Origin: an uncultured Candidatus Saccharibacteria bacterium
GTDB lineage: Bacteria; Patescibacteriota; Minisyncoccia; Phycocordibacterales; UBA918
DNA length: 24,000 nt
Direction of reading: 5' to 3'
Assembly: GCA_964492305.1 (NCBI GenBank)
Contig: CAZBJN010000002.1
Span: forward strand, 279-24,278
Numbering within the stretch: position 1 is the stretch's first letter; every line of letters begins with the position of its first letter. A program made the translations under genes and the position numbers. The notes below the pieces were generated by a model. That model saw only the letters and a list, made by a program, of their open reading frames with translations, was not told the DNA's origin and made no database searches. Of the stretch, positions 9,961 through 10,402 are shown piece after piece.

Positions 9961-9978
9961 CCTGTGATGAGAGATTTG
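9961..9978 (-). other. Direct-orientation fragment of the tRNA-Val 3' end
   Basis: The reverse complement reads CAAATCTCTCATCACAGG. The first 13 nt are identical to the tRNA-Val T-loop/acceptor segment CAAATCTCTCATC. The remainder resembles the gene's GCGCACATAGG with deletions. The fragment directly abuts repeat copy B. Confidence 0.6.
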
Positions 9979-10039
9979 GTCACGAATCACTAAGTATATT
10001 TATTCGTCTCCGACTCTAAATCTACTAAGTGTTCTTGAC
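9979..10039 (-). repeat. Copy B of the ~61-nt imperfect-palindrome repeat
   Basis: In tRNA sense: GTCAAGAACACTTAGTAGATTTA-GAGTCGGAGACGAA-TAAATATACTTAGTGATTCGTGAC. It differs from copy D (14015-14075) at only about 5 positions. Confidence 0.85.
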
Positions 10040-10072
10040 CACGCCTCGCTTGCCTACGGCAGCGCTGCGGCT

Positions 10073-10122
10073 TTCAAATCTCTACGAAAGTGCCGCAGGG
10101 CACTTTCTCATCGCGCACATAG
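10073..10122 (+). other. Inverted, split fragment of the tRNA-Val 3' half interrupted by a 22-nt hairpin
   Basis: The plus strand reads TTCAAATCTCT (10073-10083) and TCTCATCGCGCACATAG (10106-10122). Both are identical to the sense sequence of tRNA-Val, whose gene is on the minus strand. They are separated by acgaaagtgccgcagggcactt. The hairpin at 10086-10107 reads GAAAGTGCC-CUGC-GGCACTTTC in minus sense. Confidence 0.7.
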
Positions 10123-10132
10123 ATTAATAGTG

Positions 10133-10191
10133 GTCACGAGTTACTAACTAGAATAGTTCGCTACGCTCCTATTCTAGTAAGTACTCTCGAC
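10133..10191 (-). repeat. Copy C (divergent) of the imperfect-palindrome repeat, in the tRNA-Val downstream module
   Basis: In tRNA sense: GTCGAGAGTACTTACTAGAATAG-GAGCGTAGCGAA-CTATTCTAGTTAGTAACTCGTGAC. The termini (GTCGAG...CGTGAC) and cap architecture (GAG-stem-GNA-stem-GAA) match the other copies. The inner arms differ but are mutually complementary (CTAGAATAG / CTATTCTAG). Confidence 0.75.
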
Positions 10192-10245
10192 CCCGGCTCG
10201 ACTGTTCTTCTCGCTTGGAAAGACGAGAAGAACATGTCTCCGCCC

Positions 10246-10333
10246 CGCACATAGGTACGGAAGCAAAGCAGTTTGCTTCCTACAATAAAAAGCAGTCTCG
10301 AGTGAGAACTGCTTTTTATTATACCTATGTGCG
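10246..10333 (-). other. 88-nt three-way palindromic unit overlapping the tRNA-Val 3' end
   Basis: Arm 10322-10333 (tacctatgtgcg, including tRNA nt 10330-10333) is the exact reverse complement of arm 10246-10257 (cgcacataggta). The arms enclose a 13-bp A/T-flanked terminator-like hairpin (10284-10296 / 10308-10320) and a 22-nt hairpin at 10259-10280. In tRNA sense the latter reads GGAAGCAAA-CUGC-TTTGCTTCC. Confidence 0.8.
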
Positions 10334-10402
10334 CGATGAGAGATTTGAACTCCCGACCTTCTCAGTGTAAATGAGCTGCTCTACCAACTGAGCTAATCGC
10401 GC
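10330..10402 (-). tRNA. tRNA-Val (anticodon TAC)
   Basis: The reverse complement folds as GCGCGAT TA GCTC AGTTGGTA GAGC A GCTCA TTTACAC TGAGA AGGTC GGGAG TTCAAAT CTCTC ATCGCGC A. The cloverleaf is canonical and the anticodon loop UUUACAC gives UAC. No CCA is encoded. Confidence 0.92.

Follow-up and report, generated by a model that had tools for sequence, protein, structure and literature searches.

A tRNA-Val 3' end probably displaced by two protein-less hairpin units in a Saccharibacteria genome, and the gene-less repeat family to which the units belong

The stretch of DNA analysed here, termed the window throughout, comprises 24,000 nucleotides of an uncultured Candidatus Saccharibacteria bacterium (contig C2:279-24278), whose assembly of 1.04 Mb is divided into 102 contigs, has a GC content of 44.7% and is 96.7% complete. 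Its subject is a 13-nucleotide (nt) string of the tRNA-Val(tac) gene that recurs beyond the 3' end of that gene, which indicates that the locus was entered rather than built in place. We consider it probable that the second copy is the stump of the original tRNA-Val 3' end, displaced by about 350 bases when two hairpin elements that encode no protein, each bringing a replacement end for the gene, came to lie in between. Full-text literature searches returned no description of gene-less units of this kind, and the present work adds tabulated empty sites at tRNA-Val, protein-gene targets and a codon-position test.

The repeated string, CAAATCTCTCATC, occupies 9966-9978 and 10335-10347, in both cases on the minus strand, and these are its only two copies in the entire assembly. 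A preliminary description of this DNA, made from the letters alone, had reported the recurrence in the same orientation and had placed the downstream copy correctly, while its range for the copy in the gene (10337-10350) was off by 2-3 nt. Its judgement that a chance recurrence is very unlikely is borne out by two matches with at most one mismatch against 0.08 expected, a count of two being reached in none of 100 shuffles. In the gene, the copy runs from C56 through the remainder of the T-loop and the T-stem's 3' strand into the acceptor 3' strand, of which it takes in the first 3 nt. The first C of the downstream copy doubles as the final base of a hairpin module (...GTGACC), so that the tRNA origin is unambiguous for 12 nt (9966-9977); in our reading the repeat may carry on into ACA..GG at 9961-9965 if a 4-nt gap (GCGC) is permitted. 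The 13-mer is specific to tRNA-Val and lies outside the consensus of the repeat family described below. The bracketed DNA had been called free of protein genes, and between tRNA-Val and tRNA-Arg (9818-10328) no open reading frame (ORF) exceeds 58 amino acids, the longest ones overlapping the tRNAs. Rfam 15, applied at the gathering score, matched three tRNAs in the window and no other RNA family.

With reference to the tRNA sense (minus strand), a unit is composed of X, a terminator-like hairpin, X' and a spacer hairpin, and closes with a conserved module of about 65 nt, an imperfect hairpin whose last bases are GTGACC; the previous gene end follows. X denotes a copy of the last 10-30 nt of the target gene and X' its inverted copy, often split by a small palindrome, whereas "terminator" is used descriptively for a hairpin with a T-run. 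The features of the locus in this order are as follows.

10329..10402, minus: tRNA-Val(tac), intact, without an encoded CCA (ARAGORN; Rfam tRNA, 68.9 bits).
10330-10346, minus: the X in use, that is, tRNA-Val from T-loop position 57 on.
10322-10328, minus: trailer ATAGGTA, start of unit 1.
10281-10321, minus: terminator-like hairpin and T-run of unit 1, the putatively younger, short-X ("type A") unit (inverted repeat I3).
10259..10280, minus: small palindrome A, with a stem of 9 base pairs and a 4-nt loop.
10246..10257, minus: X1', a 12-nt inverted copy of the tRNA-Val 3' end plus trailer (complement of CGCACATAGGTA; inverted repeat I7, 12/12).
10195..10245, minus: spacer hairpin of unit 1; its flanks GGAGACATG ... 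CAGTCGAG are conserved, its stem is variable (inverted repeat I11).
10132..10194, minus: module m3 (type 1), end of unit 1 (nhmmer E 1.7e-19; covariance model 88 bits; fold).
10123..10131, minus: nine nt, ACTATTAAT in tRNA sense, in place of unit 2's own X and terminator.
10106..10122, minus: acceptor part of X2', a 17-nt inverted copy of tRNA-Val positions 62-76 plus trailer ATAG (inverted repeat I2, 17/17).
10086..10107, minus: small palindrome B, which splits the inverted copy at the boundary of acceptor and T-stem.
10073..10083, minus: T part of X2', an 11-nt inverted copy of the T-loop and the T-stem 3' strand (complement of TTCAAATCTCT; inverted repeat I9, 11/11).
10042..10072, minus: spacer of unit 2, with a GCC-GNA-GGC mini-hairpin.
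9978..10041, minus: module m2 (type 1), end of unit 2, the putatively older, long-X ("type B") unit (nhmmer E 5.6e-17; covariance model 82.9 bits).
9961..9977, minus: X3, the likely remnant of the displaced tRNA-Val 3' end, directly after the module; 12 nt exact (9966-9977), then ACAGG.
9745-9817, minus: tRNA-Arg(tct).

In total, long hairpin modules, small palindromes, spacer hairpins and inverted copies of the tRNA end are each present twice in the bracket, and the terminator-like hairpin once; the earlier inventory of a module, an inverted tRNA fragment and two palindromes was slightly short. Palindromes near-identical to A are found in further units, at other tRNAs as well as in other genomes, and the flanks of the spacer hairpin are likewise present in other copies of the family. 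The nine nt at 10123..10131 are best read as the eroded left end of unit 2, the orthologous unit of a relative (G010, below) having kept a full terminator at this place. The junction between target and unit is fixed, falling at C56|R57 in the long-X units and at the discriminator in the short-X units, and the inverted copy extends 2-3 nt past it. When folded as single-stranded DNA, the bracket reaches -109 kcal/mol on the sense strand (z = -14.9) and -101 kcal/mol on the other strand (z = -12.0). A promoter-like TTTAGA-16-TATACT lies within module m2 (9993-10020, minus, directed towards tRNA-Arg), as a consensus match only; TATACT is present in many type-1 modules, which may supply outward promoters.

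The same layout was found behind most of the 31 tRNAs of the genome when the 330 nt following each of them were printed; to look for the bracket at other tRNAs had been proposed in the preliminary description. A direct repeat of the tRNA tail (at least 10 nt, at most 600 nt downstream) accompanies about 17 of the 31 tRNAs and an inverted repeat (at least 10 nt) about 21, against 23 of 781 and 33 of 781, respectively, in a control that compared each tRNA tail with the regions downstream of the other tRNAs. Profile searches of the genome yielded 39 module matches of two types, 24 of them within 300 nt 3' of a same-strand tRNA and several at the ends of contigs. The units measure 150-270 nt each and their targets comprise more than 20 different genes, including rplL, rplB and lepA. 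In many copies, including the one at tRNA-Val, the direct repeat is decayed or truncated. In the type-1 module a long imperfect hairpin is capped by a C-GNA-G mini-hairpin, a loop type known for classic hyperstable DNA mini-hairpins. Among 23 distinct copies, 11 of the 20 predicted pairs have changed on both sides and 98% of the cells are paired, compared with 27-39% when the partners are slid; the folds contain 25 G:T pairs on the gene-sense strand and 4 on the other strand, with a mean dG of -21.6 versus -18.2. The hairpin structure is under selection and folds better on the gene-sense strand. Several contigs start inside a module (C2:3-34, C4:1-54, C59:5-36, C81:127-187), and the family breaks the assembly, with some tRNA-linked copies probably missing from it.

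The comparison of relatives was made on the synteny from tRNA-Val(tac) to tRNA-Arg(tct), which the window shares with ten relatives, the gap measuring 272-1541 nt. In the window and seven relatives the site is occupied, modules being present and the direct repeat of the tRNA tail setting in from the last base of the module in all eight. The site is empty in G003, which belongs to the same genus, and in G039 and G040, where tRNA-Val is followed by a plain terminator or unrelated DNA, with no module, no direct repeat above 7 nt and no inverted repeat above 8 nt. An unoccupied site of the sort that the preliminary description proposed to look for is therefore present in three relatives; together with the specificity of the 13-mer to tRNA-Val, this leaves its integration reading standing. 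G003, though empty here, has family members elsewhere in its genome, and in other relatives different module types fill the tRNA-Val site. The occupied site of G036 has the look of a fresh insertion, with a perfect 21-nt repeat followed by a second terminator.

G010 is the most instructive of the occupied sites. It carries the split inverted copy and palindrome B as in the window, with one compensatory change from G-C to A-T, which places unit 2 before the split of both genomes; the unit of the window and that of G010 are, on this comparison, orthologous. The displaced copy of G010 is 18 nt long and is followed by a terminator that, by eye, resembles the native one of G003, so that everything in between is insert. 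By comparison, what remained of the displaced end would later have disappeared from the window together with the ancestral terminator and about 1.2 kb, and unit 1 would have been gained. The flanks have diverged between the window and G010, yet the inverted copies of the window match the tRNA perfectly. The motif TTTTCTGCTATT (9917-9931, upstream of tRNA-Arg), kept in most syntenic relatives and probably the tRNA-Arg promoter, marks where homology to G010 resumes beyond the deletion adjoining the 13-mer.

Further evidence comes from units that stand behind protein genes, in which the displaced end is coding sequence. Two of these in the genome of the window (G000) are located as follows.

G000:C18:16659-16863 (L159): rplB unit, with the displaced coding end after the module.
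G000:C31:7515-7760 (L158): rplL unit, with the displaced coding end after the module.

The rplB gene ends in ..GGKR*, after which hairpin, palindrome, inverted copy, spacer and module are followed by a second RKR* (AGA changed to CGG), and rplL ends in GAKITLK* in use and in GAKVTLK* where displaced. Behind lepA (G000:C3:34216-34545, L160) there are four tandem type-2 modules, each after a copy of the last codons (KSD*); these copies differ synonymously or stop-to-stop (AGT to TCT, both Ser; TAA to TAG), and the type-2 units there are without a terminator hairpin.

In the genus rplL is a hot spot, modules being present in about half of 30 congeners and a plain terminator without module in the other half. 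Among these congeners, the 44 nt around the end of each type-1 module were aligned to the last 24 nt of rplL with no pattern imposed, and 11 of 15 modules were followed within 0-3 nt by a copy of the gene end matching at least 15 of 24 positions, where random best matches had a mean of 10.2 and a maximum of 16. In-use and displaced ends differ by up to 6 of 24 nt, and 45 of the 56 differences are at third codon positions (p ~7e-13, a value tempered by related genomes not being independent, some common history having been counted more than once). At informative sites X' agrees with the in-use copy in 32 cases and with the displaced copy in 4, where X' had itself been located through its match to the in-use copy. 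Differences concentrated at third positions mean that the two copies diverged while both were coding, in different lineages, and that the element supplies a gene end of foreign origin instead of making a duplicate of its target. X thus moves together with the element, and the gene-proximal copy is attP-like and part of the unit. Target duplication by a staggered cut was ruled out, the two copies differing at synonymous sites.

How the units integrate is something we infer from this arrangement. For tRNA-Val, unit 2 would have entered at the T-loop between C56 and R57, and unit 1 would have entered later at the acceptor end, ahead of unit 2. The end brought by each unit would have kept tRNA-Val intact while the older ends moved downstream, leaving the 13-mer as the last and oldest of them, and later deletions would have taken the terminator of unit 2 and most of X3 together with the ancestral terminator. 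Serial insertion next to the tRNA had been offered as one possibility at the outset, and two units do stand in tandem. As to the route, it is possible, though we hold it only tentatively, that the element travels as folded single-stranded DNA, for instance after uptake via competence pili. X would pair with X' to form a duplex copy of the target site within the single strand, as CTX phage forms its attP, and a host enzyme, for which a lone Xer-like tyrosine recombinase is the sole obvious candidate, would exchange strands at the foot of the stem. Strand exchange and replication would then give the order gene, X, hairpin, X', spacer, module and old X, which is the order observed.

A bolder proposal, which we regard as rather doubtful, is that of a protein-less, self-folding cassette of about 200 nt of single strand that could enter any gene whose last 10-30 nt it carries, by means of conserved host machinery alone. 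If this were true, target choice would be written in the element and altered by changing X and X', amounting to a natural programmable insertion without a dedicated enzyme, spread by DNA uptake among bacteria of the Candidate Phyla Radiation (CPR).

Several points weigh against the displaced-end explanation, in addition to the shared history within the codon-position test. X3 is just 12-13 nt long, and its former full length would follow from the comparison with G010. A consensus terminator scan of 9450-10550 called nothing, the terminator-like hairpin of unit 1, which has one bulge in its stem, included. At locus L102 the inverted copy matches the displaced copy and not the tRNA, which fits only if the exchange point is variable. 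It is unexplained how near-identical modules come to be paired with X and X' for more than 20 genes. No enzyme is linked to the units, and no excised, circular or intermediate form is on record.

The genome was accordingly searched for recombination enzymes, and the integrase or HUH enzyme that the preliminary description had proposed to look for did not turn up as a dedicated gene. One tyrosine recombinase is encoded (contig C1); it is Xer-like, passes the XerA model and scores 135 bits against the integron-integrase model TIGR02249, for which the cut-off is 265. The one serine recombinase is a large protein of 439 amino acids with Recombinase and zinc-ribbon domains (G000:C14:13951-17385, L034); it adjoins an IteA-like anti-phage AAA ATPase, and the locus is probably a small mobile defence island. 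The genome has no match to the Y1 HUH transposase model (RAYT/TnpA, PF01797) or to the IS110 DEDD transposase (PF01548), control genomes being positive for both, and none to reverse transcriptase (RVT_1, PF00078). The Y2 transposase model (PF04986) gave no match either, but the controls likewise gave none. The T-loop junction follows GTTC, as in the GTTC/CTTG rule of IS91, while the junctions in rplL and rplB do not. In viral contigs a 17-nt module motif had three matches, all within coding sequence without a hairpin, giving no phage carrier. A search for an autonomous partner, not exhaustive, found none at tRNA-Val in the ten relatives, behind the 31 tRNAs of the genome or in viral contigs.

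The strongest of the competing explanations, which we nonetheless deem unlikely, is that the bracket is a functional structured RNA co-transcribed with tRNA-Val, acting in 3' processing, stabilisation or regulation by antisense pairing with the tRNA 3' end, so that the 13-mer would be part of a closing stem and not a scar. It would account for the covariation of the hairpins and their better folding on the gene-sense strand, where mismatches are G:T and not A:C, and for inverted copies that have stayed perfect against the tRNA while the flanks diverged from G010; an inverted copy and a direct repeat could indeed make a closing stem. However, most of each unit is situated beyond a transcription stop, given the terminator-like hairpin and T-run with which it opens, and the site is empty in a congener and filled by other module types in other relatives. 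The direct repeat that would close the stem is decayed or truncated in many copies, this one included, the same units stand behind protein genes with displaced coding ends, and Rfam offers no match. The apical C-GNA-G loops are, moreover, of the DNA mini-hairpin type. A hammerhead and an H/ACA-like guide were also considered and dropped for want of core motifs.

Somewhat less probable still is that nothing mobile is involved, the arrangement having arisen from local replication errors at terminator hairpins (template switching by which palindromes are extended, slippage by which the gene end is duplicated), with modules spread by gene conversion. The succession X, terminator, X' is the layout expected from extension of a quasi-palindrome, palindrome-templated correction could maintain perfect inverted copies, and at a Yonathbacteria locus (L079) a 3' end and its terminator are duplicated identically. 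Duplication followed by decay predicts otherwise than what is seen at rplL, where the two ends differ by up to 6 of 24 nt, nearly all synonymously, and where X' tracks the in-use copy. Unrelated genes, and genomes of different classes within the phylum, also share the same modules and small palindromes, and the alleles are either empty or hold a whole unit.

Lower again in our estimation stands the view that the bracket is the decayed remnant of one tyrosine-integrase island or prophage once in tRNA-Val, similar to a cis-mobilizable element (CIME) with its attL and attR. A direct repeat of a tRNA 3' end from the T-loop on is a known integrase signature (PMC1762012, PMC9897764). Against an island speak a bracket with no integrase remnant or other ORF, a genome whose one tyrosine recombinase is Xer-like, and a content made up of two copies of a 39-module family found at more than 20 genes with 150-270 nt per unit. 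No kb-scale relative of the insert was found at tRNA-Val in the ten syntenic genomes. The att-like footprint first proposed for this locus can be retained as a displaced original tRNA-Val 3' end, with attL/attR chemistry by a site-specific recombinase as a hypothesis; of the decayed or non-autonomous element, the protein-less non-autonomous unit stands, and the decayed integrase island gives way to the 39-module family and its protein-gene targets.

A chance match in AT-rich intergenic DNA, for which the mere 13 nt and the repeat-rich surroundings could be cited, is negligible in view of the 0.08 matches expected with one mismatch, the two copies in 1.04 Mb and the position directly after the module in eight of eight occupied sites. 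Two further candidates were discarded: a tRNA pseudogene, as the inverted copy tracks the 3' strand across a G:U pair and contains the T-loop complement, and the primer-binding site of a retroelement, as trailer bases absent from the mature tRNA are included and there is no reverse transcriptase.

Beyond this genome, type-1 modules are present in many genomes of the genus. A covariance model found them in 5 of 150 genomes drawn evenly from the phylum, and a BLAST-level search with module m2 against 300 genomes of the phylum gave no match outside its own genome. A pattern scan with the two module ends and a variable gap pointed to seven named Patescibacteria assemblies (Nomurabacteria, Yonathbacteria, Saccharibacteria, Paceibacterota); the pattern is loose and most of the 120 matched stretches are chance matches in high-GC genomes, only the seven Patescibacteria loci being usable. 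In other genera, nine of nine covariance-model matches and seven of seven pattern matches lie just 3' of a same-strand tRNA. The type-1 module is common in the genus and patchy elsewhere, and is not claimed to be phylum-wide.

On the side of tRNA-Arg, the 5' end of the gene and its 6 upstream bases (9809-9823) have a 15-nt copy at 9885-9899 inside a hairpin, and a second hairpin lies at 9828-9853, both within the upstream region 9826-9900 (minus). The same arrangement of hairpin and copy is seen in G010 and G018, and it may represent a counterpart element acting at tRNA 5' ends. At two loci upstream of tRNA-Arg (L023 in G001 and L018 in G018), a tRNA-Arg 5' part that reaches as far as the T-stem precedes a hairpin, a type-2-like module and TTCGATTCC, in this order; it has the look of an older copy of tRNA-Arg that was broken within the T-arm, with the intact gene downstream replacing it.

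Should the displaced-end explanation hold, CPR genomes of about 1 Mb would contain dozens of copies of a gene-less mobile element that repairs the gene it enters and bears its target in direct as well as in inverted copy. In CPR assemblies it would account for fragments of tRNAs, for displaced ends of genes and for many contig breaks, and the displaced ends that differ synonymously would be dated fossils of the gene-end alleles of other lineages and so a record of horizontal exchange. It would also raise the questions of which host enzyme inserts the units and how one module family fits more than 20 targets.

Among known systems, the nearest in outcome are integrase-borne tRNA elements such as Islander-type islands and mycobacteriophage Ms6. 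The attP core of Ms6 comprises 26 bases of a tRNA-Ala 3' end with strand exchange in the 7-bp T-loop (PMC1762012), and integrated elements leave a complete tRNA copy together with a partial one (PMC9897764). The present units likewise regenerate an intact tRNA with their copy of the gene 3' end, leave the old end as a partial direct repeat at the far side, and occur as empty and occupied alleles among relatives. Unlike integrase-borne elements, they are gene-less at 150-270 nt, have no matching integrase in the genome, carry an inverted copy of the target, stack in arrays and have one module in common to more than 20 target genes, protein genes included. Entry at the T-loop and at the acceptor end corresponds to two of the three sublocations that Williams reportedly distinguished in 2002.

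The likeness to CTX phage and to integrative mobile elements exploiting Xer (IMEX) resides in two nearby inverted target-like copies that could form a duplex site in a single strand, in both arms coming to lie together at the gene-proximal junction after integration, and in the lack of an element-encoded recombinase; by analogy, Xer may play the corresponding role here, the only tyrosine recombinase of the genome being Xer-like. IMEX elements target dif, the fixed Xer site, and carry genes, whereas the targets here are diverse gene 3' ends (tRNA, rplL, rplB, lepA) with no dif-like motif identified. As in integron arrays and in clusters of attC sites lacking integron-integrases (CALINs), each unit ends in a hairpin that is imperfect, conserved in structure, variable at its centre and conserved at its ends; as in integron arrays, the newest unit would be nearest the entry point and the hairpin folds better on one strand. 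Unlike integrons, the modules have ends (GGTCGAGA / TCGTGACC) that do not fit the attC consensus RYYYAAC ... GTTRRRY (R''/R'), the genome has no integron integrase above the cut-off, the units bear a gene end and a terminator instead of an ORF, and entry takes place within host genes. Finally, the units resemble repetitive extragenic palindromes and bacterial interspersed mosaic elements (REP/BIME) with their REP-associated tyrosine transposases (RAYT), as well as MITEs (miniature inverted-repeat transposable elements), in being short, non-coding, hairpin-forming, multi-copy, extragenic and protein-less. They differ from REP/BIME and MITEs in a genome without a Y1 HUH gene and in having no terminal inverted repeats of their own; instead they possess target-specific direct and inverted copies, keep a fixed orientation to the gene and replace its end.

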